This document shows, in pieces, positions 7,354 to 45,059 of a stretch of DNA of 58,001 nucleotides. The stretch's first letter is position 1. Every line of letters begins with the position of its first letter. This DNA comes from Chromatiales bacterium (GTDB taxonomy: Bacteria > Pseudomonadota > Gammaproteobacteria > CAMYNG01). The stretch lies in assembly GCA_026990045.1 (NCBI GenBank), contig JALSIK010000281.1:1-58001 (forward strand), read 5' to 3'. The translations under genes were made by a program, and so were the position numbers. The notes under the pieces are model-generated. The model saw only the letters and a list, made by a program, of their open reading frames with translations, did no database searches and had not been told where the DNA came from.

Positions 7354-7359
7354 TGAGGC

Positions 7360-13416: not shown

Positions 13417-14343
13417 ATGGCCGAACATGCCGGAGCTGCCCTTGCCGGGGGCGAGATGAGCGGGGCCGGGGTGCCTTTCGGCCATCTGTTGTCCGCCGAG
13501 GATCGCCGCCGTCTCATGGCCGCCGGCCGCGTGCGCAGCGTGGCGGCGGGGGCGACCCTGTGCCGCCGCAACGAGGTGGACGGGCGCGCGTTCATCATCG
13601 TCCTCGGCGAGGTGGAGGTGGTGGAGCAGGCGGGCGGCCGGCGGACGGTGCTGGCCCGGCTGCGCCGGGGCGAGCTGTTCGGCGAGATCGCGGCCCTGTT
13701 CGGCCTTCCCCGGGTGACCGACGTGGTGGTGAGCCGCCCCGCGGTGCTGCTGGAAATCGACGGCCGCGCCCTGGACGAGCTCATCATCGCCCGCAGCCGG
13801 TTGCGCCACGCCATCATGCAGCGCTGCCGCCACCGGATCACGGCCACGGCGCTGCGGACCGTGGCCCCGTTCCGGGACCTGCCGCCCCCCGCCCGCGAGC
13901 GGCTGGCGGCCGGTGCGGCCTGGGTCACCTTCGCGCCCGGTCGTGACATCGTCCGCGAAGGGGAGGCGGGGGATGGACTTTACGTCATGTTGTTCGGGGC
14001 CGCCCGGGTCACGGTCCCCGGCCCGGAGGCGCCGGTGAACCTGGCCCTGCTGCGCCCCGGCGAGTACTTCGGCGAATGGGCGGTGCTCACCGGCGCGCCG
14101 CGCGCGGCCACGGTGACGGCCGTCACCCAGGTGGAGGCGCTGCGGGTGGAGCGCGAGACGTTCCTCGCCCTGGCCGACGAGCATCCCGAGGTGAAGATGC
14201 AGGTGGAGGCCCTGTGCCGGCGCCGGCACGAGGCACTGCTCTACAGCGGCCGCCATCCGGGCGCCGCGCGCACCGCGCACCGGCTCCTGGCCAGCATCGA
14301 GCAGGTGGTGTCGGGGCAGCGCCGCCACCTGTACGGCCTGTAG
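13417..14343 (+). CDS. protein with two cyclic-nucleotide-binding (CAP-effector) domains
   Basis: Two copies of the cNMP-binding pattern (..RRGELFGEIAALFGLPRVTDVV.. and ..RPGEYFGEWAVLTGAPRAATVTA..). No DNA-binding or catalytic domain is evident. Confidence 0.8.
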   Translation: MAEHAGAALAGGEMSGAGVPFGHLLSAEDRRRLMAAGRVRSVAAGATLCRRNEVDGRAFIIVLGEVEVVEQAGGRRTVLARLRRGELFGEIAALFGLPRVTDVVVSRPAVLLEIDGRALDELIIARSRLRHAIMQRCRHRITATALRTVAPFRDLPPPARERLAAGAAWVTFAPGRDIVREGEAGDGLYVMLFGAARVTVPGPEAPVNLALLRPGEYFGEWAVLTGAPRAATVTAVTQVEALRVERETFLALADEHPEVKMQVEALCRRRHEALLYSGRHPGAARTAHRLLASIEQVVSGQRRHLYGL

Positions 14344-25672: not shown

Positions 25673-25688
25673 TGTGATCGCGATCCCA
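25673..25688. promoter_or_regulatory. near-consensus CRP-type site TGTGA-tcgcga-TCCCA
   Basis: 9 of 10 consensus half-site positions match, 91 nt upstream of the ATG at 25779. Confidence 0.35.
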
Positions 25689-25778: not shown

Positions 25779-27326
25779 ATGACCCACATGCTCCTGCTCA
25801 CCACGCCGGCACAGCATGCCGCCGACAATCCCGCCGTGGAGCGGGATCCCCGGCGCCTGCGCCAGTGGCTGGCGGCGCTGCCCACGCTCAACGTGCTGGA
25901 GACGGTGCACCGCCTGCAGCGCGTGCTCACGCCCTTCAACGAGCTGGCCCTGGACGACGAGCGCCGGCTGCGGCTGCTGGAGACCTACCGCGAGTCGCTG
26001 GAGTCCATCCTGTTCGAGTACGACGACCTGCGCCTGCGCCAGCTCGCCATCCCCGCCGACCAGCGCCATGCCGTGGCCCAGGACATCATGTGGCTGTACC
26101 TGGAGCTGGCCAGCGGCTACAAGATCGTGCTGCGCCACCAGCACGAGGCGGGCCGGACCCTGCGCCGGCACGGGCCCATGCTGCTGGCGGCCTTCCGCGC
26201 CGCCGAGGCCATGGCCCAGGCGGTGCTCTACGCCTACCGCGCCCACGAGCCGGTGCCGCCGCTGGTGCTGCTGGAGCTGCACCAGATCTATCACCTGGCC
26301 CGTGCCCACCAGGCCCACACCCGGACGGTGCGCGCGGCCCGCGGCGAGTACCGGCGGCCCACGCTGCAGGCCCTGTACCAGCGCCTGCTGTTGATCCTGG
26401 CCGCCGACGGGGCCGGGCTGGCCGGCAACGAGCTGTTCGAGACCTGGCTGCTGCTGGAGGAGTTCTGCGGCGAGGATTTCCTGGCCCGCGAGGACGCGCC
26501 CGCCGGCGGTTGGGCGGTCAACTGGATGGAGGACGCCCCGCCCCAGGTGCTGGAAGCGGCACCGGCGGCGGACACCCGCTGGGTGTTCGACCTGGCGCCG
26601 GTGATGGAGCACGTGGAGCAGTGGTGCCGGGCGCGCGAGGCCGAGGCCGGCGGGGCCGCCCTGGGCCGCCAGGAGGTGCGGCTGCTGCGGCGCCTGCTGC
26701 GGGCGCTGGAACGGGGCGGGGCGCCGGAGACCGGGGCCGGGCGCGCGGTGCGCCTGCTGGTGGGCCTGCCGCGGCTGGCCCGGGCCCTGGGGGAACCCGG
26801 CTGGCTGGAGGCGGCGGCCACGGTGGAGGTGCACGGCGGCATCGAGGTGCGGGCGGTGGAGGCCGACGGCGAAAGCCCCTTCGCCGGCGGCGACTGGGTG
26901 CTCCACCCCCTGGCGGGGGGACGCTGCCGCCTCGAGGCCGGCGGCGCGGAGCTGCCGCCCGGCTGCGGGCCCGGCCAGCTGGTGGGGGTGCTGGACATGT
27001 CCGCGGGCGAGCCCGCGCTCACCGTGGCCCTGGTGGAGGAAGCGGCCCGCGACGGCGGCGGCGCGAGGCTGGAGGCCAGCCTGCTGGACGGCCCGCCCAC
27101 CGCGGTGCGCCTGCACGGCGCCGGCCCCCAGCAGTGGGGCCTGTACCTGCCGCGCGACCCCGCGGCGCGGCGGCCCGCCACCCTGCTGGTGGAGCGCACG
27201 CTCCACCTCAACGGCCAGGCCCTGGAGGTGGACGTGGGCGGCCAGACCTACCGCGTGCGGCCGACGGCCACCATCACCGAGACCCCGGCCATCCGCCGGT
27301 TCTCGTTCAGCGTCGTGCGCGAGTAG
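25779..27326 (+). CDS. hypothetical protein (515 aa), helical N-terminal part and beta-rich C-terminal part
   Basis: ATG after GGGAGG. Coding-like periodicity and composition. No motif I can name; a C-terminal PilZ-like barrel is only a guess. Confidence 0.6.
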   Translation: MTHMLLLTTPAQHAADNPAVERDPRRLRQWLAALPTLNVLETVHRLQRVLTPFNELALDDERRLRLLETYRESLESILFEYDDLRLRQLAIPADQRHAVAQDIMWLYLELASGYKIVLRHQHEAGRTLRRHGPMLLAAFRAAEAMAQAVLYAYRAHEPVPPLVLLELHQIYHLARAHQAHTRTVRAARGEYRRPTLQALYQRLLLILAADGAGLAGNELFETWLLLEEFCGEDFLAREDAPAGGWAVNWMEDAPPQVLEAAPAADTRWVFDLAPVMEHVEQWCRAREAEAGGAALGRQEVRLLRRLLRALERGGAPETGAGRAVRLLVGLPRLARALGEPGWLEAAATVEVHGGIEVRAVEADGESPFAGGDWVLHPLAGGRCRLEAGGAELPPGCGPGQLVGVLDMSAGEPALTVALVEEAARDGGGARLEASLLDGPPTAVRLHGAGPQQWGLYLPRDPAARRPATLLVERTLHLNGQALEVDVGGQTYRVRPTATITETPAIRRFSFSVVRE

Positions 27327-30681: not shown

Positions 30682-31131
30682 TCAGCCCGGCGCGGCGGCG
30701 GCGATGTCCTTGAGCCGCGAGCGCAGGCCGGCCCAGCCCATGCCCAGGTTCACCGCCCGGGTGGTGACCAGCACCACCAGCAGGTCGGGGCGGTCGGGCA
30801 CCGCGCTGATGAAATGAAACACCCCGCCGGTGGCGAACTGCATCTCGTGCAGGCTGTGCCGGATCGCCTCGCCCTTGGCCTGTCCCAGCATCTTTTCCAC
30901 CGTGGCCACCGCCTTGCCCCGGAACAGGTCCACGGTGGCCGCGGCCAGGGTGTCCAGCAGGGACTGGGTGAACCAGGACACGTGGTGGGCCACGCCCAGC
31001 AGCAGGCCCGATTCCTGGTCCACCACCGCCGCGGCCAGGGCGTGGTCCACGGTCTCCACCATCTCGCGGCAGATGTCGTTGAGGTTGGACATGGCGGGCC
31101 GGGCCGGCGCCGGAGCCTGATCCGGGTGCAT
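30682..31131 (-). CDS. divergent Roadblock/LC7-like protein
   Basis: The ATG at 31131 is 2 nt after the upstream stop; alternative ATG at 31092. Same size and alpha-beta pattern as the preceding Roadblock protein (..ALAAAVVDQESGLLLGV.. ..GGVFHFISAVPDRPDLLVVLVT..). Confidence 0.6.
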   Translation of the reverse strand: MHPDQAPAPARPAMSNLNDICREMVETVDHALAAAVVDQESGLLLGVAHHVSWFTQSLLDTLAAATVDLFRGKAVATVEKMLGQAKGEAIRHSLHEMQFATGGVFHFISAVPDRPDLLVVLVTTRAVNLGMGWAGLRSRLKDIAAAAPG

Positions 31132-31133
31132 GG

Positions 31134-31568
31134 TCAGCTTCCGGCCACTGCGGCGATGGTCTCGGCGGCCTGGCGCGCGTGGGCCAGGCACACCCCCAGG
31201 TTGGCGCCGGCCCGCGTGAACACGGTGAGCAGCAGCCGCGGTCCGGCATGGAGCAGGAAGATGCGCCCGCCCTCGCCCTCGATGAGCACGTTGCGCGGCT
31301 CGCCGCGCGCGCCTTCCCGGGCCAGGGTGTCGCACAGGGCCAGCAGGGCGCCGCTCATGGCGGCGAAGCGGTGGCGGTCGAGACCGGCGGGCAGGCGCTC
31401 GGCCCAGGCCACGCCGTCGGCACTGGAGACGATGGCGCCGTCGATGTCCTCGGCGAACTGGATCATCTGGTCGATGACCTGCCCGATGGCCTCGCGCACC
31501 GGGGCCGGGGCGGGGCCGTCGCCGGCCTCGCGGCTGAGGCGATCGATGACCTGGTCGATGATCTGCAT
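31134..31568 (-). CDS. Roadblock/LC7 (MglB/CvnB-like) protein
   Basis: GAGGAGA RBS. ..IDGAIVSSADGVAWAERLP.. ..MSGALLALCDTLARE.. ..VLIEGEGGRIFLLHAGPRLLLTVFT.., typical of the Robl_LC7 fold. Confidence 0.7.
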   Translation of the reverse strand: MQIIDQVIDRLSREAGDGPAPAPVREAIGQVIDQMIQFAEDIDGAIVSSADGVAWAERLPAGLDRHRFAAMSGALLALCDTLAREGARGEPRNVLIEGEGGRIFLLHAGPRLLLTVFTRAGANLGVCLAHARQAAETIAAVAGS

Positions 31569-31591
31569 GCGGTTCTCCTCGCGCCGGCGGC

Positions 31592-32122
31592 TCAATGGCC
31601 CAGCACGGCCAGCAGGGCGTGGATGAGCACCTTGACGTCCTCCGGGTTGCGGGCGTCGATCTCGAACACCGGCACCACCTGGTTGCGCTCCAGCAGCCGG
31701 GCCTGGAACGCCTCCAGCGGTACGGTGGCGGCGAGGTCGGACCGCGTGAGCCCGATGACCACGCCGGTCTCGCGGATGAAGTCGGCGAAGGCATCGAGGT
31801 AGAACTCCATCTGCGCCACCGGGTCGGGATGGTCGCAGTTGACCAGCAGGACCAGGCCGATGCCGCCCCGGGCGAGGATGGACCACATGAAGTCGAAGCG
31901 CTCCTGTCCCGGCGTGCCGTACAGGTGCACCCGCGTGCCGTCGTCCAGCAGCAGGTAGGCATAGTCCATGGCCACGGTGGTGGTGGACTTGAGGGCCCAG
32001 GCGCCGTCGGTGCAGGGCACGTCGGTGCCCACCGGCGGGGTGTCGGCGATGGCGCCGATGGCGGTGGTCTTGCCGGCCCCCACCGGGCCGGTGAAGATGA
32101 TCTTCTCCGTCGCCGCGAGCAC
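31592..32122 (-). CDS. Ras-like small GTPase (MglA/CvnD-type ATP/GTP-binding protein)
   Basis: GTG at 32122 after GAGGGGA. P-loop GPVGAGKT, switch II YGTPGQERF, and an atypical G4 (LLVNCD). Confidence 0.75.
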   Translation of the reverse strand: MLAATEKIIFTGPVGAGKTTAIGAIADTPPVGTDVPCTDGAWALKSTTTVAMDYAYLLLDDGTRVHLYGTPGQERFDFMWSILARGGIGLVLLVNCDHPDPVAQMEFYLDAFADFIRETGVVIGLTRSDLAATVPLEAFQARLLERNQVVPVFEIDARNPEDVKVLIHALLAVLGH

Positions 32123-32136
32123 GGTGCCGTGTCCCC

Positions 32137-33129
32137 TCAGCGCCGCAGGCTCAGGCGCCGGGCGATGCGCGCCAGCAGGCCGCGCCGGGATGGCGGCGGG
32201 GCGGGCGGCGCCGCCGCCGGGGCGTCGTCGCCGGCGCGCTCCAGCAGGCCCACGGCGAAGGCCGCGTTGTGGAAGTCGATGGTGGTGGCCAGCGGCACCC
32301 CGGTGGCGGCGGCCAGCCCCGCCAGCGTGTGCGGGGCCCGGGCCAGGGCCGCGGCCAGCTTCAGGTGGTCGGGGTGAAAGGCGTGGCGGGTGAAGTTGGG
32401 CCAGGCCTTGAGCCGCACCGGGGTCTCGGTGTCGTGGCCGGGCAGCAGGCGGCCGCCCGAGCAGGCCAGGGCCGCGTCCCACAGCAGGGTGCTCAGCGAC
32501 GTGACCTGGACCTCGCCTGCCGGGGCCCGCTCGCCGGGCGCCGGCTCGCGCACGGTGAAGGCCCCGGCGGGGCGGGTGAGCAGGCGGTGCAGGGCGGCGG
32601 TGTCCAGCGTGCTGGTGACGCTGCCGGCCTCGCCGTCGATCCAGGCCGATCCCGCGCCCGCCACCTCCAGCACCAGGCGCCGGCGCTGGTGGCGGGCGTC
32701 GAGCAGGGTACGGAACACGTCCACCGGCGTGGCCGCGGCCGGGCGGGCGGGCGCGTCCTGGCGCGACAACTGGGCCGCCATCTTTTCGTACAGCCGGCCC
32801 AGCAGGTCGCGGAAGCGGCCGATGTCCACCGGCTTGCGCACCGCGATGAGATTGCGCCCGATGCGGGCCTCCGCCGCCAGCAGCAGCTTGACCTGTCCCG
32901 GCCGCGCCGCCGCCAGCGCCTCGCGCCCTTCGCGGTGGTCGGCGTCCAGCACCAGCAGGTGCGCGCGCCGCGGCTGTGCCTCCAGCAGGGCGAAGGGCTT
33001 GCCGTCGTGGGCCAGCAGCTTGACGGCGGTGGTCAGGGCCAGCCGGTCCTGGTCGCCGAGGCCGGCCACGGCCAGGTACAGGGTGTGGCCGTGGGGCACG
33101 GAATGCTCGTTGTCGGGCGAAAGCGCCAT
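32137..33129 (-). CDS. hypothetical protein: degenerate receiver-like N-domain plus DUF742/CvnC-like winged-helix C-terminus
   Basis: ATG at 33129. Receiver-like beta3/beta5 motifs are HLLVLDAD and LIAVRKPVDIGRF. The C-terminus HTLAGLAAATGVPLATTIDFHNAAFAVGLLE resembles the DUF742 HTH. Confidence 0.6.
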   Translation of the reverse strand: MALSPDNEHSVPHGHTLYLAVAGLGDQDRLALTTAVKLLAHDGKPFALLEAQPRRAHLLVLDADHREGREALAAARPGQVKLLLAAEARIGRNLIAVRKPVDIGRFRDLLGRLYEKMAAQLSRQDAPARPAAATPVDVFRTLLDARHQRRRLVLEVAGAGSAWIDGEAGSVTSTLDTAALHRLLTRPAGAFTVREPAPGERAPAGEVQVTSLSTLLWDAALACSGGRLLPGHDTETPVRLKAWPNFTRHAFHPDHLKLAAALARAPHTLAGLAAATGVPLATTIDFHNAAFAVGLLERAGDDAPAAAPPAPPPSRRGLLARIARRLSLRR

Positions 33130-33215
33130 GGCGGTTGCGCGGTCTCCTCGATCTCCTGCTCGCTGGGGTGCTGAAAGACTATCGGCCACGGGCATGCCGG
33201 CGCCGCGTGGAAGAG

Positions 33216-33231
33216 TGTGATCCCACTCACA
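33216..33231. promoter_or_regulatory. perfect CRP/Vfr-type palindrome TGTGA-tcccac-TCACA
   Basis: Read directly, 87 nt upstream of the minus-strand start at 33129. Confidence 0.65.
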
Positions 33232-33282
33232 GATACCTTTAGCACCCGCTGGCGCGGGCCGGCGATGGGGGCAGACTGTTTC

Positions 33283-33298
33283 TGTGAGCCCACTCACA
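33283..33298. promoter_or_regulatory. perfect CRP/Vfr-type palindrome TGTGA-gcccac-TCACA
   Basis: Read directly, 122 nt upstream of the ATG at 33420. Its spacer is nearly identical to that of site 33216..33231. Confidence 0.65.
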
Positions 33299-33419
33299 CA
33301 TTCCCCGCCGCGGCATCCACCGCCCGCCGGCGGGGACGATATGGGCACACGGACGCCGGGGCGTGGCCACGACACGCCGCACGGTGAACCCGGGAACCAA
33401 CGGAAAGCAGGCGGCCACC

Positions 33420-34307
33420 ATGAACGACAAGCCCGTGTACGCGGTGCGGCTGGAAAATGTCGCCGACAGCGAGCGCATCATCTTCAAGCTGATCTTTTCC
33501 GTCTCCCGCAACAGCCCCAGCCGGCCCCACGGCTACGCGCTGGCGGAGGCGGGGACGGCGGACATCGTCATCGGCCCGGAGCCGGCCGCCGCCGGCGGCG
33601 CCCGGGTGCTGCCCCTGCGCGATGCCGGCGACGGCCGCGGGCCCGGCCTGGTGCGGCCCCTCATCGCCAGCCGGGTGCTGGCGGCGCTGGATGCGCTGGT
33701 CGCCGCGCCGGCGGCGGAGGATGCCGGGGCAGACGCGGGATCGGCCGCCCCGGACGCCGCCCCGGTGGTGGAGTTCAGCATCAGCGAGGAAGAGGCCTCG
33801 GAGCTGGCCATCGTCCACGACGAGAGCCTGTCCAACCCGGCCAACGAGGCCGCGGAGGCGCCCGCCGATGCCGCACCCGCGGCCACCGTGCATCCCCTGC
33901 CGGGTGCGAAGGAGGCGCCGCGGCCGCGGGCCCTGGTGGTGGACGACAGCGCCTCGGTGCGCAAGCAGCTCGAGCTGGAGCTGGACCTGTTCGAGGTGGA
34001 GGTGGACTACGCCGCCGGCGGCGAGGAGGCGCGCGGCCACCTCGCCGCCCGCCGCTACGACGTGGCCTTTCTCGACGTGGTGATGCCGGACGCCGACGGC
34101 TTCGACCTGTGCAAGGCCATCAAGGCCGCCTCGCCCGCCACCCGCGTCATCATGCTCACCGGCAAGGCGACCCAGGCGGACAAGATCAAGGGCACCCTGG
34201 CCGGTTGCGACGCCTACCTGGTGAAGCCGGTGGGGCGCGAGATGTTTCAGTCCACGGTGCGCAGGTTCCTGCAGTTGCGGCAGGCCCGCAGCGCCATGGG
34301 CGCGTGA
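33420..34307 (+). CDS. response regulator, PilG-position, with N-terminal pseudo-receiver and acidic/Ala-rich linker
   Basis: C-terminal canonical receiver (ALVVDDS..VAFLDVVMPDADG..VIMLTGK..AYLVKP). The N-terminal ~100 aa are receiver-like but lack the acidic pocket. Start uncertain (track start 33363). Confidence 0.75.
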   Translation: MNDKPVYAVRLENVADSERIIFKLIFSVSRNSPSRPHGYALAEAGTADIVIGPEPAAAGGARVLPLRDAGDGRGPGLVRPLIASRVLAALDALVAAPAAEDAGADAGSAAPDAAPVVEFSISEEEASELAIVHDESLSNPANEAAEAPADAAPAATVHPLPGAKEAPRPRALVVDDSASVRKQLELELDLFEVEVDYAAGGEEARGHLAARRYDVAFLDVVMPDADGFDLCKAIKAASPATRVIMLTGKATQADKIKGTLAGCDAYLVKPVGREMFQSTVRRFLQLRQARSAMGA

Positions 34308-34343: not shown

Positions 34344-34709
34344 ATGGCCATCAACAAGGTGCTCGTGGTGGACGACTCGCCGGCGGAGCTGTCGGCCATC
34401 CGCAACATCGTGGCCGACACCGGCTGCATGGTCATCGCCGCCACCAACGGCCGCGAGGCGGTGGAGCTGGCGCGGCGCGAGTCGCCGGACATCATCTTCA
34501 TGGACATCATCATGCCGGAGATGGACGGCTACGAGGCCACGCGCCGGCTGGCCAACGATCCCGCCACCCGCGACATCCCCATCATCTTCGTCAGCAGCAA
34601 GAACCAGAAGGCGGACAAGATCTGGGGCCAGATGCAGGGCGGCAAGGGCTACATCACCAAGCCCTTCGAGCCGGCCCAGATCGTCGAGCATCTCAAGGCC
34701 CTGGGCTGA
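34344..34709 (+). CDS. single-domain CheY-like response regulator (PilH position)
   Basis: VLVVDDS..IIFMDIIMPEMDG..IIFVSSK..GYITKP. GAGGAGGAG RBS. Confidence 0.9.
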   Translation: MAINKVLVVDDSPAELSAIRNIVADTGCMVIAATNGREAVELARRESPDIIFMDIIMPEMDGYEATRRLANDPATRDIPIIFVSSKNQKADKIWGQMQGGKGYITKPFEPAQIVEHLKALG

Positions 34710-34719
34710 GGCGGCGCCC

Positions 34720-35262
34720 ATGACCGGTGACGTCACCGACGCCGAGGCCCTGCTGGCCCGGCCCGGGGACGCGGCCCCGGGCGCAGGCCTGCGCTACGGC
34801 TACCGGCTCGGCGGCCTGGCCCTGCTGGTGGAGGCCGGCCTCAAGAGCGAGGTGACGGCGGCCGCGCGCCTGTGCCCGGTCCCGCGCACCCCGCCGGCCC
34901 TGGCCGGGCTCATCAACGTGCGCGGCAACATCGTGCCGGTGTTCGACCTGGAGCAGGCCCTGGGCCTGCCGCCGCCGGAGCAGGCGCCGGAGCACGTGCT
35001 GGTGCTGGGCGAGGGCGAGGCCGCCGCGGGGGTGCGCATCGCCCGCCTGCCCGAGTCGGTGCGGCTGGCCGCACCGGCGCCGGCCCAGCCGCCGCCGGCG
35101 CTGGCCGGGTACGCCGGCGAGGCCTGGCACGATGCCGGCGGCACCCTGTGGTGGGCCCTGGACCACCGGGCCTGTTTCCGGCACCTGCAGCGCCAACTCA
35201 GCGGGCTGGCCCCCGGCGGGCCGCCCCCCCATCCGGCCGCGGCGACCGCGGCCTCCGCCTGA
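34720..35262 (+). CDS. CheW-like coupling protein (PilI position)
   Basis: ..PPALAGLINVRGNIVPVFDLEQALGL.. is typical of CheW. Confidence 0.8.
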   Translation: MTGDVTDAEALLARPGDAAPGAGLRYGYRLGGLALLVEAGLKSEVTAAARLCPVPRTPPALAGLINVRGNIVPVFDLEQALGLPPPEQAPEHVLVLGEGEAAAGVRIARLPESVRLAAPAPAQPPPALAGYAGEAWHDAGGTLWWALDHRACFRHLQRQLSGLAPGGPPPHPAAATAASA

Positions 35263-35280
35263 TCCCGGGAGGACACCTCC

Positions 35281-37149
35281 ATGCTCAACCGACTCAAGAT
35301 CGCCACCCGGCTGGTGGTCCTCATCGCGGTCCAGATCACGGTGCTGGGCCTGGTGGGCGCCGTGGCCATCACCGCGCTCAACAACGCCTTCAACACCACC
35401 GCCCTGCTCAACACCAGTGTCATCGAGCAGGTGAAACTCAACCAGCTCAACGAGACCGTGCGCGGCGACCTGCTGGAGACGGTCAACCGCGCGGCCGCGG
35501 GCAAGCTGTCCTGGGAGGCGCTGGACGAGGCCCTGCTGGCGGCACGCAACCTGTTCGTCAACAACTGGGACGAGTACAGGGAGGAGAAGACCCCGGAGCA
35601 GGTGCGTGACATCGAGGCCTCGCTGGGGGCGGAGTACCAGGCGGTGCTCGCGGCCTTCGACCGCCTGCGCGGGTTCCAGGCCGCGCGGGACCGCGAGGGA
35701 CTGGCCGCCTTCGCGGAGGGCGAGCTGCCGCGCATGGTCAACCCCTTCCTGCTGGAGCTCAACGAGCGGGTGGCCGAGCAGCAGCTCGCCTCCGAGGCGC
35801 TGTTCGAGAGCTCCCTGCGCGAGGGCCGGCTGGCCCTGTGGGGTGCCGCCGGCGTGGTGGTGGTGGGCCTGCTGGTGGCGGGCCTGCTGGGTTATCTCAT
35901 CTACCTGGGCATCAACCGCTCCATCCGGCGCATCCAGGCCACGGTGGCGGAGGTGTCCGAGGGCAACTACTACGCCCGCACCGGCCTCACCGGCACCGAC
36001 GAGCTGGCCGAGCTGGGCGGGGCCTTCGACGCCCTGCTCGAGGACAAGGTGGCCAGCCTGGTCCGGGCGGAACAGGAGAACGAGCGCCTCAACGAATCGG
36101 TCATCGCCCTGCTGGAGGCGGTGTCCCGGCTCAGCCAGCGCGACCTCACCGTCAAGGTGCCGGTGACCGAGGACGTGACCGGCCCGGTGGCCGACGCCCT
36201 GAACCAGCTCACCGGCGAGACCTCGCGCGTGCTCCAGGGCGTGCGCCGCATCTCGGAGGAGGTGGCCCGGGCCTCGGCCATGGTCAAGGCCCAGTCGGAC
36301 AACGTCATCGCGGTGGCGGCCGAGGAACGGCGCGAAGTGGAGGAGACCGCCCGCGAGCTGGCCCACGCGGTGGAGACCATGGCCCACATCGCCGCCCTGG
36401 CGGAGGAGTGCGACCGGGCCGCGGAGCAGGCCATCCGCACCACCCACACCGCGCTGGAGACCGTGACCCGCACGGTGGAGGGCATCAACGGCATCCGCGA
36501 GACCATCCACGAGACGGAAAAGCGCATCAAGCGCCTGGGCGAGCGCTCGCAGGAGATCAGCCGCGCGGTGAACCTCATCAACAGCATCTCCGAGCGCACC
36601 CACATCCTCGCCCTCAACGCCTCCATGCACGCCGCCTCCGCCGGCGAGGCCGGCAAGAGCTTCGCCGTGGTGGCGGACGAGGTGCAGCGCCTGGCGGAGA
36701 GCGCGCGCGACGCCACCGCCCAGATCTCCACCCTGGTGTCCAACATCCAGGTGGAGACCGCCGACACCGTGGCCACCATGAACGAGGTGATCACCCAGGT
36801 GGTGGAAGGCACCCGCCTGGCGCAGGAGGCGGGCCAGCAGATGCAGCGCACCGAGGAGAGCACCGCCGGCCTGGTGGAGGCGGTGCGTCGCATCAACGAG
36901 CGCTCGCAGGACCAGGCTCGGCTGTCCAATGCCCTGCAGGGGCGCGCCGGCCAGATCCAGGAGAGCACGCGCAAGACCAGCCAGCAGCTCCAGGAGCAGA
37001 CCCAGCAGACCACCCGCCTGGTGGAGTACGCCCGCGGCCTGCTCAACGCGGTCAACGTCTTTCGCCTGCCCGAGGGCGATGCGGCCCCGGGGCTGGCCCC
37101 GCTGGCCCCGGCCCCGGCGGGCGGCGAGCTGGAGAAAAAGGCCTCCTGA
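35281..37149 (+). CDS. methyl-accepting chemotaxis protein, PilJ-like
   Basis: Two TM segments around a helical periplasmic domain, then HAMP. The signalling-domain hairpin is ..RTHILALNASMHAASAGEAGKSFAVVADEVQRLAE... The post-HAMP segment ..DLTVKVPVTEDVTGPVADALNQL.. resembles pilus-class MCPs as I recall them. Confidence 0.85.
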   Translation: MLNRLKIATRLVVLIAVQITVLGLVGAVAITALNNAFNTTALLNTSVIEQVKLNQLNETVRGDLLETVNRAAAGKLSWEALDEALLAARNLFVNNWDEYREEKTPEQVRDIEASLGAEYQAVLAAFDRLRGFQAARDREGLAAFAEGELPRMVNPFLLELNERVAEQQLASEALFESSLREGRLALWGAAGVVVVGLLVAGLLGYLIYLGINRSIRRIQATVAEVSEGNYYARTGLTGTDELAELGGAFDALLEDKVASLVRAEQENERLNESVIALLEAVSRLSQRDLTVKVPVTEDVTGPVADALNQLTGETSRVLQGVRRISEEVARASAMVKAQSDNVIAVAAEERREVEETARELAHAVETMAHIAALAEECDRAAEQAIRTTHTALETVTRTVEGINGIRETIHETEKRIKRLGERSQEISRAVNLINSISERTHILALNASMHAASAGEAGKSFAVVADEVQRLAESARDATAQISTLVSNIQVETADTVATMNEVITQVVEGTRLAQEAGQQMQRTEESTAGLVEAVRRINERSQDQARLSNALQGRAGQIQESTRKTSQQLQEQTQQTTRLVEYARGLLNAVNVFRLPEGDAAPGLAPLAPAPAGGELEKKAS

Positions 37150-37155
37150 TCCCCC

Positions 37156-40100
37156 ATGGCGATCCCGGTGGAACAGCGCAGCTCCCTGGAGCTGGAGGTG
37201 AGCGGGGTGGTGGCCGAGATGCTGGAGGCCTTCGCCGCCACCGGTGACGGCGGGGCCGATGCCGCCGCCAGCGGCGATGCCCTGGCGCGCTACCAGCGGC
37301 GGGTGGCCCGCATCGGCATGGCCGCCGGCCGTTTCGGGCTCACCGGGCTGCAGGACACCTGCGTGGAGCTGCAGGACCGGCTGCGCGCGCTCAAGCGCCG
37401 CGGCACCGGCCTCAGCGCCGAAGAACGGGAGCTGCTGGAGGAATGGCCGCTGCTGGTGATGGGGTACATCAACGCCCCCCACGACCCGGCCGCGGCGCAG
37501 GCACTGGTGGACTTTCTCCAGCGGCCCGCCTGGGGCGAGCCGGTCTCGCCCGAGACCGGGGCCGAGATCCGCAGCGCGCTGGGCAGCGACCCGGCCCTGC
37601 CGGCACCGCCCGCGGCCGGCGACGACCCGCCCCGAGACGATGCCACCGGGCACGATGCCGGGCCCGCCGGCGACGGCACCGGCGGCCTGGCCGGCCTGGG
37701 CGGGCCCCTGCGGGAGGAAGTGGAGGAGGCCATGGGCGACTGCCTGCTCCGGCTGGCCGAACCCGGGGTGGCGCCGGAGGAGGCCCGGGCGGCGCTGACC
37801 CATTGCGCCGAGCGCCTGGAGCTCCTGGCCATGACGGCGGCCACCGCCGGCCTGGCCGGTTTCATGGACGCCTGCCAGATCTTCCAGGCCGGCCTGCGGC
37901 GCCTGGCCGCCGCCGGCCGCGTGCCGGCGACGGAGGAGCTGGACGCCCTCTACCGGTGGGCGGGCCTGGTGGGGGCCTGGCTGGAGGCGCCGCACGACGC
38001 CGGGCGGGCCGAGGCCCTGGTGGACTTTCTCCAGGCCCTGCCCTGGGGCGAGCCGGTGGACGCAGAGCAGGCCGCCATCCTGCGCGGGCTGCTGGCACCC
38101 GAGGAGATCCACATCGACGCCCCGGCCGGCGGGCCGGAGGCGGCGGGCGGGGCCGGCGAAGAACCGCCGGAGATCCCGCCGGCCTACCGCGAGCTGGTGG
38201 GGCTGCTGCGCATGGAGCTGGAGCAGTCGCAGCCGGAACTGGAGTCCGCCCTGGCCGCCGCCGCCGGCGACGACATCCCGGCCGGGGACCGTCATGCCGC
38301 CTGGCGCCAGGTCCTGGATCGGCTGGAGCGCTTCGCCGGCGCCGCCGCCACCCTGGGCCTGCACGGCCTGGCCGAGGCCTGCGGGCACGTCCATGCCTGT
38401 GCCGAGTTCATCGACGCCACCGGCGAGCCGCTGGCGCCGGCGCAGCACCGCTGGTTTGCGGACTGGCCCCGGCGGGCGCGCGCCTACCTGGAGACGCTGG
38501 TGGACCCGGCCGCCTGCACCGCCCTGGCGGACTACCTGGGCGAGGCGGACTGGGGCTGTGCACCCGATGCCGCCGCGCGCGAGCGGCTGGTGCAGTCCCT
38601 GGCCCGGCCCGAGGTGGCGCTGGAAGAAGAGGAACTGGCGCCGCGCCAGGCCGAGGCCCGCGCCGAGGACGTCTCCCTGGCCCTGCCCGACGACGTCAAC
38701 CCGCAGCTGCTGGACAGCCTGCTCCAGGAGCTGCCCCACTACACCGCCGATTTCTCCGCCAGCATCACGCGCCTGGCGGAGGGCGCCGGCACCCGGGCGG
38801 ACGTGGAGACCGCCCAGCGCATCGCCCACACCCTCAAGGGCTCGGCCAACACCGTGGGCGTGGCGGGACTGGCCAACCTCACCCACCACATGGAGGACAT
38901 CCTCGAGGCCCATGCCCGCGCCGGGCGCCTGCCCCCGGCGCCCCTGGTGCGGGTGCTGCAGAGCGCCGCCGACGTGCTGGAGATGATGAGCGAGGCCCTG
39001 CTGGGGCAGGGCGAGGCCCCGGCCCATGCCCGCGAGGTGCTGCAGGAGGTGCTGGACTGGGCCAACCGCATGGACCTGGAAGGGGTGCCGGAGGATGCGC
39101 CCGCCGCCCCGGAGCCGGAGCCCGCCCCGGCGGCGGAGTCCCCGGCGGCGGAGGCCGGCCCGGTGCTGCGCATTCCCGCCCGCCTGGTGGACGAGCTGCT
39201 GCGGCGGGTGGGCGAGTCCCTCATCGTCACCGCCCAGCTCCGCGAGCGCCTGGGCCGGGCGGCGGCGGAGCTGGCGGGCCTGCGCGAGCGCAACGAGCTG
39301 CTGGGACGCCTGACCCAGGAGCTGGAGCAACTGGTGGACGTGCAGGGGATCCACGCCGGACGCGGCCGCGAGGCCGGCGGCGAGTTCGATGCCCTGGAGC
39401 TGGAGCAGTACAACGCCCTGCACACCGTCACCCACCGCCTGGTGGAGGCGGTGGCCGACAGTCGCGAGATGGGCCAGGGCATGGAGGAGCAGCTCGGGGC
39501 CTTCGACGGCCTGCTGGCGGACCAGTCGCGGCTGCAGAAGGAGACCGAGGAGCTGGTCATGGAGACCCGCATGGTGCCGGTGCAGAACCTGGTCCCGCGG
39601 CTGCAGCGGGCGGTGCGCCAGGCCTGCCGCCTCACCGGGCGCGACGCGGTGCTGGAGGTGTCGGGCGCCGACACCCTCATCGACGCCCAGGTCCTGGACC
39701 AGCTCGCCGATCCCCTCCTGCACGTGCTGCGCAACGCGGTGGACCACGGCATCGAGCCGCCGGACCGGCGGGCCGCCGCCGGCAAGCCGGAGCGGGGCCG
39801 CATCCGCCTGGCGTTCCGGCGCGAGGGCGACCACATGGTGGTGTGCTGCGAGGACGACGGCGCCGGCCTCGACCGCGAGGCCATCCTGCGCCGGGCCCGC
39901 GCCCGCGGCCTGGTGGGCGCGGACGAGACGCCGGCCGACGAGGTGCTCGACGCCCTGGTGCTGGTGCCCGGCTTCTCCACCCGCGAGGAGGTCTCCCAGG
40001 TGTCCGGCCGCGGCGTGGGCATGGACGTGGTCAACACCCGCGTGCGGGAGATGAAGGGCACCCTGCGCCTGCACTCGGAGCCGGGCCGCGGCTGCCGGGT

Positions 40101-40977
40101 GGAGATGCGCCTGCCGCTCACCCTCATCTCGGTCCATGCCCTGCTGGTGGGGGCGGGGGCCGGCCGCGTGGCCCTGTCCAGCCGCGGGGTGGAGCGCATC
40201 GTCTATGGCGGCGACGGCCGCTGGGAGGCCGGCGCGGACGGCGCGCAGTACTGCCTGGGTGACGAGTGCCACGCCGCCTTCGAGCTGGAGGCCCTGCTGG
40301 GCCTGCCCGCGCCGGCGGCGGACGGCGAACCGCGGCCGGTGCTGCTGGTGCGCGATCACGGCGGCCTGCTGCGGGCGGTGCGGGTGGCCCGGGTGCTGGC
40401 CAGCCAGGACCTGGTGGTGAAGCAGATGGGCCCGTACATGCCACGGGTGCCCGGCCTCGACGGCGCCACCATCCTCGGCGACGGCACCGTGGCCCCGGTG
40501 CTGGACCTGCCGGCGGTGCTGGCCGCGGCGCGCAGCGACGGCCTGCCCGCGGCGGCGCCGGCGGCGGCGGAGGCCGCCGCCCCGCCGCGGGCCCTGGTGG
40601 TGGACGACTCCCTGTCCGCCCGCCGCAGCCTGGCCCAGTTCGTGGCCGACCTGGGTTACGAGGTGCATACCGCCCGCGACGGGCTGGAGGCCATCGAGCT
40701 GCTGGGCCGGGTGCAGCCGGAGCTGCTGCTGGTGGACCTGGAGATGCCGCGCATGAACGGCCTCGAGCTCACCGCCCACGTGCGCGCCGACGACGCCCAC
40801 CGCCACCTGCCGGTGATCATGATCACCTCGCGTTCCACCGACAAGCACCGGCGCCAGGCCGAGCGCGCGGGGGTGGACCGCTATCTCACCAAGCCCTTTT
40901 CCGAAGACGAACTGCTGGGCCACATCGCCACGCTGGCCGCGCGGCCGCCGGCCCGGCTCCATGCAGGAGGACCGTGA
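37156..40977 (+). CDS. ChpA/PilL-like hybrid CheA kinase (degenerate Hpt-like repeats, Hpt, HATPase, CheW, receiver)
   Basis: Canonical Hpt AHTLKGSANTVG (His codon at 38827-38829). Kinase boxes ..HVLRNAVDHGIE.., ..DDGAGLD.., ..GRGVGMDVV... A CheW-like segment, then a C-terminal receiver (ALVVDDS..LLLVDLEMPRMNG..VIMITSR..RYLTKP). Confidence 0.9.
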   Translation: MAIPVEQRSSLELEVSGVVAEMLEAFAATGDGGADAAASGDALARYQRRVARIGMAAGRFGLTGLQDTCVELQDRLRALKRRGTGLSAEERELLEEWPLLVMGYINAPHDPAAAQALVDFLQRPAWGEPVSPETGAEIRSALGSDPALPAPPAAGDDPPRDDATGHDAGPAGDGTGGLAGLGGPLREEVEEAMGDCLLRLAEPGVAPEEARAALTHCAERLELLAMTAATAGLAGFMDACQIFQAGLRRLAAAGRVPATEELDALYRWAGLVGAWLEAPHDAGRAEALVDFLQALPWGEPVDAEQAAILRGLLAPEEIHIDAPAGGPEAAGGAGEEPPEIPPAYRELVGLLRMELEQSQPELESALAAAAGDDIPAGDRHAAWRQVLDRLERFAGAAATLGLHGLAEACGHVHACAEFIDATGEPLAPAQHRWFADWPRRARAYLETLVDPAACTALADYLGEADWGCAPDAAARERLVQSLARPEVALEEEELAPRQAEARAEDVSLALPDDVNPQLLDSLLQELPHYTADFSASITRLAEGAGTRADVETAQRIAHTLKGSANTVGVAGLANLTHHMEDILEAHARAGRLPPAPLVRVLQSAADVLEMMSEALLGQGEAPAHAREVLQEVLDWANRMDLEGVPEDAPAAPEPEPAPAAESPAAEAGPVLRIPARLVDELLRRVGESLIVTAQLRERLGRAAAELAGLRERNELLGRLTQELEQLVDVQGIHAGRGREAGGEFDALELEQYNALHTVTHRLVEAVADSREMGQGMEEQLGAFDGLLADQSRLQKETEELVMETRMVPVQNLVPRLQRAVRQACRLTGRDAVLEVSGADTLIDAQVLDQLADPLLHVLRNAVDHGIEPPDRRAAAGKPERGRIRLAFRREGDHMVVCCEDDGAGLDREAILRRARARGLVGADETPADEVLDALVLVPGFSTREEVSQVSGRGVGMDVVNTRVREMKGTLRLHSEPGRGCRVEMRLPLTLISVHALLVGAGAGRVALSSRGVERIVYGGDGRWEAGADGAQYCLGDECHAAFELEALLGLPAPAADGEPRPVLLVRDHGGLLRAVRVARVLASQDLVVKQMGPYMPRVPGLDGATILGDGTVAPVLDLPAVLAAARSDGLPAAAPAAAEAAAPPRALVVDDSLSARRSLAQFVADLGYEVHTARDGLEAIELLGRVQPELLLVDLEMPRMNGLELTAHVRADDAHRHLPVIMITSRSTDKHRRQAERAGVDRYLTKPFSEDELLGHIATLAARPPARLHAGGP

Positions 40978-41783
40978 TGTTCCGAAGCCGCCTCGTGTTG
41001 ATCCTGGCCCTGCTGGCCGCCGTGCCCGCGGCGGCGGAGGAGGCCGCCGAGACCTATACCTTCGGCATCGTGCCGCAGCAGTCGGGCAGCCGCCTGTCGC
41101 GGCTGTGGTCGCCCATCCTCGCCTGGCTCGAGGAGCGCAGCGGGCTGCGGCTGCGCTTTGCCACCACCCGCAACATTCCCACCTTCGAAAAGCGCCTGGC
41201 CCAGGGCAAGTACGATTTCGCCTACATGAATCCCTATCACTACATCCAGTTCCACGACGCCAGCGGCTACACCGCCTTCGCCCGGGCCCGCGACAAGCGG
41301 CTCAAGGGGATCCTGGTGGTGCGGCGCGACAGCCCGTTCCGGCGCCTGGCGGACCTGGACGAGCGGGACCTGGCGTTTCCGTCCAACGCCTTTGCCGCCA
41401 ACCTGGTGCCGCGGGCGGTGTTCCGCCAGGAGGGCATCGACGTGGAGGCCCACTTCGTCTCGTCCCACGACTCGGTCTACCGCAACGTGGCCAAGGGCCG
41501 CTATCCCGCCGGGGGCGGGGTGATGCGCACCTTCCGCAACACGCCGGCGGCCTACCGCAGGCAGTTGCGGGTGCTGTGGACCTCGGAGGGCTACACGCCC
41601 CATGCCTTCGCCGCCCACCCGCGGGTGCCGCCGGAGGCGGTGGAGCGGCTGCGCGCGGCCATGCTGGCCATGGACCGCGATCCCCGCGGCCGCGCCCTGC
41701 TCAAGCGCATCCGCCTCAAGGGCATCGAGGCCGGCCGTGACGCCGACTGGAACGACGTGCGCGAGCTGGCGATCAACGACTGA
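40977..41783 (+). CDS. PhnD-like (phosphate/phosphonate ABC-type) periplasmic substrate-binding protein
   Basis: The ATG overlaps the ChpA stop (GTGATG). Signal peptide MFRSRLVLILALLAAVPAAA. ..YTFGIVPQQS.. ..KYDFAYMNPYHY.. is typical of the PhnD/SBP-3-like family. No permease or ATPase gene is adjacent. Confidence 0.7.
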   Translation: MFRSRLVLILALLAAVPAAAEEAAETYTFGIVPQQSGSRLSRLWSPILAWLEERSGLRLRFATTRNIPTFEKRLAQGKYDFAYMNPYHYIQFHDASGYTAFARARDKRLKGILVVRRDSPFRRLADLDERDLAFPSNAFAANLVPRAVFRQEGIDVEAHFVSSHDSVYRNVAKGRYPAGGGVMRTFRNTPAAYRRQLRVLWTSEGYTPHAFAAHPRVPPEAVERLRAAMLAMDRDPRGRALLKRIRLKGIEAGRDADWNDVRELAIND

Positions 41784-42069: not shown

Positions 42070-42744
42070 TCACCGGCTGTGATACACGACGATGTCCATG
42101 CCGTGGGCCTCGATCATGCCGTCCTCGGCCATCTGGCGCAGGACGCGGCCCACGGTCTCGCGCGAGCAGCCCACGATGCGGGCGATCTCCTGGCGCGAGA
42201 TGTGGATCTGGGTGCCCTCGGGGTGGGACATGGCATCGGGCTCGTGGCACATGTCCAGCAGGGTGCGGGCGATGCGCCCGGCCACGTCCATGGTGGTGAG
42301 CTGGCTCACGCGGCGGCTGGTCTTGAGCAGGCGCTCGCACAACTGCAGGCCCACCGCGTACATGATGGCGGCCTCGTACTCCTTCAGCGCGCCCTTGAAC
42401 AGGGCCCGCAGGCGGTTGTAGCTGATGATGGCCAGCTCGCACTGGGTGCGGGCCCGCACCTGCGCCGTGCGCCGCGGCAGCTTGTAGAACAGGCCCACCT
42501 CGCCGATGAAGTCGCCGGACTTGAGATAGGACAGCACCACCTCGTTGCCTTCCTCGTCCAGGGCGGTGACCGAGACCGAGCCGCTGACCAGGTAGTAGAG
42601 GGTGTCGGCGGGATCGCCGGCCCGGAACACCACGCCCTTCTTGCGCACCGTGCGCCGGGCGCAGAAGGACAGCAGGCGCTCGATGGCCTCGGTGTCCACC
42701 GGGCGGACTTCCGAAGACAGCAGGTCGTCGGCGATGAGCGGCAT
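42070..42744 (-). CDS. crp: cAMP receptor protein (CRP/Vfr family global regulator)
   Basis: ATG at 42744. cNMP pocket ..GDFIGEVGLF..RRTAQVRA... The recognition helix region RQEIARIVGCSRETVGRVL is nearly identical to E. coli CRP RQEIGQIVGCSRETVGRIL. Confidence 0.9.
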   Translation of the reverse strand: MPLIADDLLSSEVRPVDTEAIERLLSFCARRTVRKKGVVFRAGDPADTLYYLVSGSVSVTALDEEGNEVVLSYLKSGDFIGEVGLFYKLPRRTAQVRARTQCELAIISYNRLRALFKGALKEYEAAIMYAVGLQLCERLLKTSRRVSQLTTMDVAGRIARTLLDMCHEPDAMSHPEGTQIHISRQEIARIVGCSRETVGRVLRQMAEDGMIEAHGMDIVVYHSR

Positions 42745-43030
42745 GACAGCTCCCCACGTCTGGCAGGCTGCGAAAGGGCGGTTCCGGCTTGTGCCCCACC
42801 GTGGCGCCCGGTGCCGGCAGGACACCTGCCTCAGCGCTGTATAGCGTTCGATACTACCAAAGTATTAGCGGAATGGCCCCACGATCCGGTCCGCCGCTTT
42901 CGATCACAAATTGGCAACTGATTGTTTTTGCCGCCCTTTGTTTTCGAGTCCCGCAAAGGGGCCGCCATTCGTCGCGGGGGCGGGGCGATGCAAAGGTTTT
43001 GTCTCCGCCGGTGCCGCCCGGGCAAAAAAG

Positions 43031-43046
43031 TGTCGCGGCGATCACA
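43031..43046. promoter_or_regulatory. CRP-like site TGTCG-cggcga-TCACA
   Basis: 8 of 10 half-site positions match. Lies in the 409-nt crp/cysC divergent region, 108 nt upstream of the cysC ATG. Confidence 0.3.
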
Positions 43047-43153
43047 AAAACCGGCCGCCGCGCGCGCGGGGTGCCCGCTATATTTCCCGTCACCATGCCG
43101 CAGGGACGCCGCGTTCGTTCATGCGTGATGACACTGCGGAGGTGGCAGCGACA

Positions 43154-43780
43154 ATGAGTACTGTAATGCAGACCAAAGTGGCCGTGCCCGGCGCCACGGA
43201 GGTGTATCCGCACCGCGGCTGCATCACCCGCCGGCGCCGCAACCGCCGCCACGGCCACCGCAGCGGGGTGGTGTGGCTCACCGGCCTGTCCGGGGCGGGC
43301 AAGTCCACCATCGCCGCGGCGGTGGAGGCGGAGCTGTTCGAAGCGGGCTGGCTGGTCACGGTGCTCGACGGCGACACCCTGCGCGCCGGGCTCAACAGTG
43401 ATCTCGATTTTTCCGCCGCCGCGCGCGAGGAGAACCTGCGCCGGGCCGGCGAGGTGGCGCTGCTGCTGGCCGAGGCGGGCTACGTCGTGCTGGCCACGTT
43501 CATCTCTCCGCACCAGGCCGGGCGCGAGGCGGTGCGCCGCGTCGTCGGCGACGACTTCCACCTGGTGCACGTGCGCGCGCGGCTGGAGGACTGCATCGCC
43601 CGCGATCCCAAGGGGCTGTACCGCCGCGCGCTGGCCGGTGCCATCCCCGACTTCACCGGCATCGGCCAGGCCTACGAGGAGCCGCCGGACGCGGACCTGA
43701 TCCTGGACACCTCCGGCGCCGACGTGGAGGCCTGCCGCCGCACCCTGGCCGGGTTCATCCGCGGGCGGTTCGCGCTGTGA
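43154..43780 (+). CDS. cysC: adenylyl-sulfate (APS) kinase
   Basis: ..GVVWLTGLSGAGKSTIA.. ..LDGDTLRAGLNSDLDFS.. ..RDPKGLYRRALAGAIPDFTGI... Confidence 0.9.
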   Translation: MSTVMQTKVAVPGATEVYPHRGCITRRRRNRRHGHRSGVVWLTGLSGAGKSTIAAAVEAELFEAGWLVTVLDGDTLRAGLNSDLDFSAAAREENLRRAGEVALLLAEAGYVVLATFISPHQAGREAVRRVVGDDFHLVHVRARLEDCIARDPKGLYRRALAGAIPDFTGIGQAYEEPPDADLILDTSGADVEACRRTLAGFIRGRFAL

Positions 43781-45021: not shown

Positions 45022-45059
45022 CATTCCCGTTTTCATCCACGACCAAGGGAGGACTGGCG

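Follow-up and report, generated by a model that had tools for sequence, protein, structure and literature searches.

CRP-type sites at conserved distances from the divergent sigma-28-like promoters of a Group 3 MglA module and a chemosensory operon in a Chromatiales bacterium

So far, CRP is known to activate sigma-28 promoters directly in only two cases, the Escherichia coli promoters aer and trg, both of which are activated from a site centred at -49.5 (Hollands et al. 2010, PMC2859248). The sigma-28 consensus of this organism is TAAAGTTT-n11-GCCGATAA, in which the CGA triplet at positions -11 to -9 is critical (PMC2859248). Here we describe a locus of a Chromatiales bacterium, contained in a stretch of 58,001 nucleotides (contig JALSIK010000281.1 of assembly GCA_026990045.1, hereafter the window), in which two perfect CRP-type palindromes, named sites 1 and 2, lie between a module encoding an MglA-type small GTPase and a divergently transcribed chemosensory operon, each of them upstream of a sigma-28-like -10 box. 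We consider it likely that the two palindromes are CRP-family operators, one for each of two back-to-back sigma-28-like promoters, and that Crp2, a CRP-family paralogue encoded in the window, is their likeliest binder.

Three other described systems are related to this locus. For Pseudomonas aeruginosa, the idea of an increase of pil-chp expression by Vfr and cyclic AMP (cAMP) is already part of the literature, in which pil-chp expression is reported to depend on Vfr (PMC8787478, PMC12632253). Clp, a regulator that responds to cyclic di-GMP (c-di-GMP), reads the sequence TGTGA-N6-TCACA, and the Lysobacter protein directly activates pilA and pilMNOPQ (PMC8246147). Finally, the Group 3 MglA systems, which have no known function, comprise a protein of unknown function with receiver-like and winged helix-turn-helix (wHTH)-like ends, an MglA protein that has a DAR motif, and either one MglB protein or two (PMC4316618).

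Position, enrichment and conservation of the two sites

The two palindromes (Table 1) fit TGTGA-N6-TCACA at all 10 specified positions and are surrounded by A/T-rich flanks, as in the 22-bp CRP consensus. They had been pointed out in a first-pass annotation of the window, and we recovered both 16-mers at the same coordinates, 67 nt apart from centre to centre, within the 290-nt gap that extends from the ATG on the minus strand to the ATG on the plus strand. Since the G+C content of the window is 71-72%, a palindrome containing A and T is very improbable by chance, and the window holds three perfect sites where shuffled sequences give an expectation of 0.02. A genome-wide scan, which the annotation had put forward as the way of judging how rare such sites are, showed them to be more frequent than chance would give: the assembly (430 contigs with 2.46 Mb in all and a completeness of 85.6%; G000 in the comparisons below) contains 12 perfect sites against 0.35 expected from base composition and none in five third-order Markov simulations, and 24 one-mismatch sites against about 9 expected. 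Ten of the 12 perfect sites are found in 5' intergenic regions, the other two having no callable neighbour gene, and sites 1 and 2 account for two of the 12. TGTGA-N6-TCACA is a real regulatory word in this genome.

In order to compare the promoters between organisms, we gathered the region from 12 loci, including those of a congener (G001), a member of the same family (G003), a Thioalkalispiraceae metagenome-assembled genome (MAG; L012), a member of another family (G112), and six loci located through the methyl-accepting chemotaxis protein (MCP) gene (L078-L083), and aligned the promoters on the CRP-like site. The relatives are MAGs of uncultured Chromatiales, Ectothiorhodospiraceae and Thioalkalispiraceae. 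In the GTPase-side promoters, the site is followed by a spacer of 31 nt (30 in G112 and L078) and then by CGATA, and this geometry is present in all eight loci in which the module is divergent from the operon (G000, G001, G003, L012, G112, L078, L079 and L083), with the exceptions that the box reads CGCTA in G003 and that in L079 the TCACA half nearer to the promoter is all that remains of the site. In the chemosensory-side promoters, 38 nt (39 in G001 and G112) separate the site from CGATA, a geometry found in 10 of 11 loci (G000, G001, G003, L012, G112, L078, L079, L080, L081 and L083), where five of the sites are perfect, four have one mismatch and one has two. In L080 and L081, where the module lies elsewhere, the chemosensory-side site is retained alone. 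The site 1 sequence is the same in the congener, in which the sites and boxes are invariant and the untranslated stretch from the box to the ATG differs. The relatives' loci, 134.6 kb in total, contain 365 CGATA boxes, of which 12 carry a CRP-like site (up to two mismatches) at one of the four spacings, against 0.8 expected, and all 12 belong to these promoters.

These comparisons bear on the alternative that the palindromes arose by chance and have no function. The motif is short, which would allow for such an origin, but the enrichment exceeds 30-fold and the geometry is shared by genomes with G+C contents from 36 to 72%, so that the comparative data refute this explanation and we give it practically no weight. 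By comparative criteria (enrichment, conserved position and A/T-rich flanks), sites 1 and 2 qualify as functional CRP-family operators, and the architecture that they form with the boxes is, as judged from the aligned sequences, real and conserved. In the more distant pilG-like loci that we inspected across the class (L044-L052), CRP-like sites with up to one mismatch are absent, as is any clear sigma-28 promoter, and the architecture is therefore confined to the lineage with this operon and crp2.

The first-pass annotation had also treated the two sites as a shared pair serving both operons, a view that the comparison overturns. The distance of each site to its own box is fixed, the distance between the sites is free (60, 67, 145, 222 or 234 bp across the loci), and single sites persist; for these reasons the sites are not a shared pair, and their arrangement identifies them as two independent sites of the activator type, one per predicted promoter. 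Cooperative use of both sites was also considered and was rejected, since 67 bp corresponds to 6.4 helical turns and the inter-site distance is not conserved.

Two side observations concern the sites themselves. Their spacers, TCCCAC (33221-33226) and GCCCAC (33288-33293), agree at five of six positions in the same orientation, which bears out the near-identity noted before; they are the same in the congener and unrelated in all other lineages, and their resemblance more likely reflects recent local copying than a functional requirement. In another Thioalkalispiraceae MAG (L021, 1857-2989), a gap of 1.1 kb separates the module from a divergently oriented ribonucleotide reductase gene, and the module has a perfect CRP site 171 nt upstream, with no CGATA box at the usual spacing.

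Table 1. Location of the sites, boxes and genes discussed in the text (positions in the window)
Feature	Positions	Strand	Remarks
CRP-type site 1, TGTGAtcccacTCACA / TGTGATCCCACTCACA	33216-33231		Assigned to the minus-strand GTPase-module promoter; centre 33223.5, 94.5 nt upstream of ATG 33129
CRP-type site 2, TGTGAgcccacTCACA / TGTGAGCCCACTCACA	33283-33298		Assigned to the plus-strand chemosensory-operon promoter; centre 33290.5, 129.5 nt upstream of ATG 33420
Sigma-28-like -10 octamer GCCGATAG	33179-33186	minus	CGA starts 31 nt downstream of site 1
Sigma-28-like -10 octamer GACGATAT	33335-33342	plus	CGA starts 38 nt downstream of site 2
First gene of GTPase module	32137-33129	minus	330-aa conserved protein, no Pfam match; the 'protein of unknown function' of Group 3 MglA systems (PMC4316618)
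MglA-type small GTPase	31592-32128	minus	ATP_bind_1/Ras; DAR motif in EIDARNPEDV
Roadblock/LC7 (MglB-type) protein	31134-31571	minus	Pfam match
Fourth module gene	30682-31119	minus	145 aa, no Pfam match; accompanies the module in every case
PilG-position response regulator	33420-34307	plus	First gene of chemosensory operon; N-terminal extension of ~165 aa
Rest of chemosensory operon	34344-40977	plus	CheY 34344-34709; CheW 34720-35262; MCP 35281-37149; CheA 37156-40977
Phosphonate-bd-type periplasmic binding protein	40974-41783	plus	Last operon gene; homologue at the same position in L078-L083
Crp2, CRP-family paralogue	42070-42744	minus	Convergent to chemosensory operon; cNMP_binding, HTH_Crp_2 and Crp domains (Pfam); helix CSRETVGRVL
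One-mismatch CRP-like site TGTGATCGCGATCCCA	25673-25688	plus	TTCGATAA box 31 nt downstream; ATG of FimW-like gene ~90 nt downstream
FimW-like gene	25779-27326		515 aa, no Pfam match
Third perfect site TGTGACAGGTTTCACA	13294-13309		No CGATA box within 70 nt
Double cNMP-binding protein gene	start about 13225 to 13420, end 14343		Preceded by the third perfect site
cysC, chrA-like transporter and sulfotransferase cassette	42745-46070		cysC encodes adenosine 5'-phosphosulfate (APS) kinase

Sigma-28-like boxes and the proposed mode of activation

Both boxes of the window fit the sigma-28 -10 consensus. Across the loci, the boxes on the module side read GCCGATAG, ACCGATAG, GCCGATAC, GCCGATAA, CCCGATAT and GCCGCTAA, those on the chemosensory side read GACGATAT, GTCGATAC, GCCGATAT, GCCGATAA and ACCGATAT, and the CGA triplet is retained in 17 of the 18 boxes. 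With the numbering of the E. coli consensus, which places CGA at -11 to -9 (PMC2859248), the transcript of the GTPase module would start at about 33173 on the minus strand, with site 1 at -50.5, and that of the chemosensory operon at about 33348 on the plus strand, with site 2 at -57.5.

A matching sigma factor is encoded in all five genomes tested, since each of them has FliA, and in the present genome two genes of the FliA family score above the NCBIfam cut-off (C90:109-762 and C215:2255-2842). The pattern TAAA-N14-16-GCCGATA occurs 13 times in this genome against 0 for a reversed-pattern control, and TCAAG-N13-15-GCCGATA 16 times against 1. In addition, modules that have no CRP-like site carry TAAA-N15-GCCGATAT upstream of their first gene in L024 and L025, and the N16 form in L013.

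The boxes are thus most likely sigma-28 (FliA-type) -10 elements accompanied only by weak -35 elements, and this assignment has to be weighed against promoters of the sigma-70 type, in which CGATAT would be a partial extended -10 element, site 2 a Class I site at -61.5, and site 1 would be centred at about -54.5. Site 2 has its centre 49.5 nt from the T of TAT, the same distance that separates the centre of the CRP site from the first T of the -10 element at lac, and the lack of a clear sigma-28 -35 element also speaks for such promoters. However, the hexamers that would result (TATGGG at the site 2 promoter, TATCGA, TACTGA, TATTCA, TAGTCT and others) mostly have no T at -7, in contrast with the near-constant CGA, and a consensus scan for sigma-70 of the interval 33050-33500 found no promoter, nor any terminator. 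The orthologous module promoters in relatives have the full sigma-28 consensus, and a site at -54.5, which is inactive at sigma-70 promoters (cited in PMC2859248), fits the module side poorly. We therefore regard sigma-70 promoters as improbable, and retain the assignment to sigma-28.

The two patterns counted above define two classes of sigma-28-like promoters by their -35 region, a TAAAG type with 13 copies and a TCAAG type with 16. A pilT gene (C193, ~2994) has a promoter of the TCAAG type about 90 nt upstream, and one of the FliA paralogues might serve pilus genes.

In the mechanism that we propose, a dimer of a CRP-family protein would bind each palindrome as the upstream activator site of one promoter. 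Site 1, in front of the GCCGATAG box, would drive the Group 3 MglA module (the 330-aa protein, the GTPase and two Roadblock-type proteins), and site 2, in front of the GACGATAT box, would drive the chemosensory operon, which encodes two response regulators (RR), CheW, MCP, CheA and the periplasmic binding protein (SBP) in the order RR-RR-CheW-MCP-CheA-SBP. Because their -35 elements are weak, the promoters would depend on the bound protein to recruit RNA polymerase, probably by means of a conserved activating region 1 (AR1) surface contacting the C-terminal domain of the alpha subunit (alpha-CTD). Site 2 has its centre about 25.5 bp upstream of the would-be start of a sigma-28 -35 octamer, a placement that resembles the Class I arrangement of sigma-70 promoters, and at about -57.5 it would leave a Class-I-like room for the alpha-CTD upstream of the -35 position. 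The protein bound would most likely be Crp2, with a second homologue, Crp1, as the other candidate or as a competitor, and the ligand would probably be cAMP.

The same geometry speaks to the sign of the regulation. The sites could instead repress or insulate, for example if a ligand-free, Clp-like protein were bound between the promoters, or if one site blocked the opposite promoter, and in favour of this are the kinship of Crp2 to Clp, which binds DNA without ligand (PMC8246147), and the closeness of the two sites in the window (67 bp). Yet both sites are upstream of their -10 boxes, at the fixed distances expected for activation and with no overlap with the -10 or start regions, their mutual distance is not conserved, and poor -35 elements are typical of activator-dependent promoters. 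Repression is for these reasons very improbable, and we take activation as the working model.

Crp2 and Crp1 as candidate regulators

The CRP homologue that had been noted in the window is present as described, with the domains and the recognition helix given in Table 1, and its membership in the CRP family stands. Its equation with Vfr or CRP does not, since a tblastn search of the genome revealed a second homologue on contig C111 (Crp1), 53% identical to Crp2 and with the same type of helix. Crp1 reaches 325 bits against structures of Vfr, has a score of 360 bits on the NCBIfam CRP equivalog model NF008732, and has the pocket N-R-S-A-W-V-R-A and the helix REMVGR. Crp2 scores 277.8 bits on NF008732, just above the cut-off of 266, and among solved structures it is closest to Clp of Xanthomonas (3IWZ; 225 bits, 51% identity), followed by Vfr (206 bits) and CRP (199 bits). 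In a maximum-likelihood tree, Crp1 and Crp2 fall into separate clades. The Crp2 clade has a support of 99/98, and the Crp1 clade contains E. coli CRP and Vfr together with one copy from each of the genomes included, which identifies the protein on C111 as the orthologue. Clp groups in this tree as the sister of Crp2 (89/91), but on a long branch, and Crp2 proteins and Clp have in common a 5-residue insertion after the cNMP domain.

The residues in contact with cAMP in E. coli CRP are Glu72, Arg82, Ser83, Thr127 and Ser128. At these positions the Crp2 pocket has GE, R-T-A (or R-S-A) and T-S, and Clp has R-E-V in place of the second cassette. At the c-di-GMP contacts of Clp, Crp2 has Thr for Glu99 and Gln for Arg154, and the positions of Arg166 and Asp170 are retained, as they are in Vfr. 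In view of the R-T-A cassette and the replacements of Glu99 and Arg154, a ligand of the cAMP type is likelier than c-di-GMP, and Crp2 probably binds cAMP. The genome encodes a class I CyaA and three class III cyclase domains, and with these cyclases and CRP-family proteins with intact pockets a cAMP system in this organism is plausible. Also conserved in Crp2 are the AR1-region motif AMSHPEGTQ and the helix RETVGR, and the residues that read the DNA are common to Crp1 and Crp2, so that by sequence either may be the binder.

The gene neighbourhood points to Crp2. In each of the 10 readable loci (window, G001, G003, G112 and L078-L083), the crp2 gene follows the chemosensory operon in convergent orientation, Crp2-type genes are found only in genomes having the sites, and 12 genomes with the MglA module have neither a Crp2-type gene nor a CRP-like site upstream of the module. 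Synteny and co-occurrence thus favour Crp2 as the dedicated binder of both sites, which we judge to be moderately likely.

The alternative is that Crp1, together with cAMP, occupies both sites as part of a global regulon, Crp2 having another role or other targets. The close match of Crp1 to the CRP model and to Vfr, its R-S-A pocket and its REMVGR helix are all as expected for such a regulator, it is present in every related genome, and the expression of pilG, pilJ and pilK is altered in a P. aeruginosa vfr mutant (PMC8787478). On the other hand, the 12 genomes that have Crp1 and the MglA module without Crp2 show no CRP-like site at the module, and it is Crp2 that is linked to the operon in 10 of 10 loci. 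We consider it rather doubtful that Crp1 alone is the binder; binding by both proteins, or competition between them, is included in our estimates for Crp2 and for Crp1.

Several findings weigh against the proposal that Crp2 activates two sigma-28-like promoters from these sites. First, the sigma-28 -35 octamer TAAAGTTT is not recognisable 11 nt before the -10 boxes, where the window has TCCACCGC and CGGCGCCG and several loci have a weak T-n-n-A-G; at E. coli aer this element is needed (PMC2859248). Second, in aer constructs with CRP moved to -54.5 or -61.5 there was no sigma-28-dependent activation (PMC2859248), and because of this inactivity the -57.5 geometry is without experimental precedent. 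Third, L082, which has both the operon and crp2, has no CRP-like site at the operon. Fourth, some Crp2 orthologues have altered pocket cassettes (R-D-A, R-I-A, R-V-A and S-S-A). Finally, perfect sites are equally enriched in relatives that have no Crp2 (5-16 against 0-2 for a control pattern), which indicates that Crp1 reads the same motif and could bind here, and both phylogeny and the occurrence of the operon as one whole unit confound the joint presence of Crp2 and the sites.

In L082, the gene in the pilG position (6448-8004) is called as a 518-aa fusion of Peptidase_M48 and receiver domains, a call that could be due to a rearrangement or to an assembly artefact. Two further candidates were considered and set aside. 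Autoregulation of crp2 found no support: a two-mismatch site at 43031-43046 recurs only in the congener and no site with up to two mismatches is present upstream of crp2 in G003 and G112. The 330-aa protein, for which a wHTH is predicted (PMC4316618), was rejected as the main binder, because in L080 and L081 the chemosensory-side site persists without the adjacent module, and because this motif serves as the CRP consensus throughout the genome. The cassette of cysC, chrA-like transporter and sulfotransferase genes adjoins crp2 or the chemosensory operon in the six loci fetched (L078-L083).

Gene content, further sites and relation to known systems

The chemosensory operon has the Pil-Chp gene order of two response regulators, CheW, MCP and a hybrid CheA with Hpt, the CheA protein here having also a C-terminal receiver, and the order RR-RR-CheW-MCP-CheA is identical in all related loci. 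The MCP, for which a search gave 5727 proteins with E <= 1e-30, has MCPsignal, HAMP and weak TarH matches, and we found neither a PilJ Pfam domain in it nor the name PilJ among the 120 homologues listed, so the name PilJ was rejected for this receptor. There is no cheR or cheB gene within the operon. Four pilT-family genes are present in the genome. The GTPase module has the composition of the Group 3 MglA systems, with the functionally uncharacterised protein, an MglA with the DAR motif and one or two MglB, the 145-aa product of the fourth gene being probably a second MglB-type partner.

A third promoter with the geometry of the GTPase side is possible at the one-mismatch site upstream of the FimW-like gene (Table 1). 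The product of this gene is 29% identical (E 3e-86) to FimW_N/FimW_C proteins of relatives, which in L078, L079 and L083 are encoded beside the MglA module, and upstream of the FimW-like genes in these three loci there are only half-sites or an N7 variant.

Several of the other perfect sites precede genes of cyclic-nucleotide signalling. The third perfect site of the window lies between a rhomboid/TPR gene on the minus strand (ending at about 13200) and the divergent gene of a double cNMP-binding protein. On contig C203 (124-139), a perfect site is found upstream of a gene for a cNMP-binding/GGDEF diguanylate cyclase, with GGACGATAT 49 nt downstream, which hints at a cascade from cAMP to c-di-GMP. 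On contig C406 (2025-2089), the perfect site TGTGATCCGGATCACA lies directly upstream of a full sigma-28 promoter, TAAAGCGC-n11-GCCGATAC, at 37 nt from its CGA. This promoter precedes an HTH_17/MerR-receiver gene, and the centre of the site would be at about -56.5. The FimW-like genes, the pilT genes and the genes of cyclic-nucleotide signalling fit a theme of pilus function and surface behaviour.

In its widest form, the model would have a dedicated Crp2 with a cAMP-type pocket, hard-wired by its convergent synteny, activate sigma-28-type promoters without -35 elements from about -50 and about -57, and thereby co-regulate the chemosensory operon, the Group 3 MglA module and possibly the FimW-like gene. 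These would form a self-contained surface-behaviour regulon of a CRP paralogue plus an alternative sigma factor in uncultured sulfur-cycle Gammaproteobacteria, and in evolution Crp2 would be intermediate between CRP and Clp. We put forward this combination only tentatively, considering it more probably incomplete or wrong in some part than correct in all of them. If it is true, a conserved promoter family with two geometries would exist in bacteria distant from E. coli, making direct activation of sigma-28 promoters by CRP proteins a general mechanism with natural spacing variants. The promoter architecture links the Group 3 MglA module to a chemosensory operon, a CRP paralogue and, in relatives, FimW-like genes, and suggests the hypothesis that Group 3 MglA acts in polarity or surface motility under cyclic-nucleotide control. 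With its Clp-type insertion and CRP-type pocket, Crp2 may show how Clp lost cAMP binding and gained that of c-di-GMP. Beyond the first-pass annotation, the analysis adds the assignment of one site to each promoter at a fixed spacing, the sigma-28-like boxes, and an operon-linked, Clp-related paralogue as the probable regulator.

The closest parallel is that with aer and trg, where a CRP-type site likewise precedes a GCCGATAA-type -10 element at a short, fixed distance and the targets are sensory and motility genes. The centre of the GTPase-side site is 39.5 nt from the CGA (38.5 in G112 and L078), compared with 38.5 at E. coli aer, and site 1 at -50.5 (-49.5 in G112 and L078) would have essentially the aer/trg geometry. 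In contrast with aer and trg, neither promoter has a recognisable -35 octamer, and the second has a spacing 7-8 bp longer, of a kind that was inactive in the E. coli constructs. The regulator here may also be a paralogue rather than CRP itself, and the promoters are predicted from sequence.

With the cAMP-Vfr/Pil-Chp circuit of P. aeruginosa, the locus shares a CRP-family regulator and an operon in the order pilG-pilH-pilI-pilJ-chpA, in a genome that also has pilT-family and adenylate cyclase genes. It is unlike that circuit in having perfect consensus palindromes at defined positions in this organism, a receptor without the PilJ domain, no CheR or CheB in the operon, and a linked regulator that is not the Vfr orthologue. 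A closed cAMP loop of the Pseudomonas style, as the annotation had suggested, is a reasonable analogy, the idea being not new in principle. Crp2 resembles Clp of Xanthomonas and Lysobacter in its insertion, its sister position on the tree and its sequence identity, but it has R-T-A where Clp has R-E-V, including Glu99, and Gln where Clp has Arg154, and it coexists with a canonical CRP. Lastly, the catalogue of Group 3 MglA systems (Wuichet and Sogaard-Andersen 2014, PMC4316618) is silent on their regulation, and the present module adds to it a predicted promoter of the sigma-28 type, with a CRP-type site that is present or absent according to lineage.

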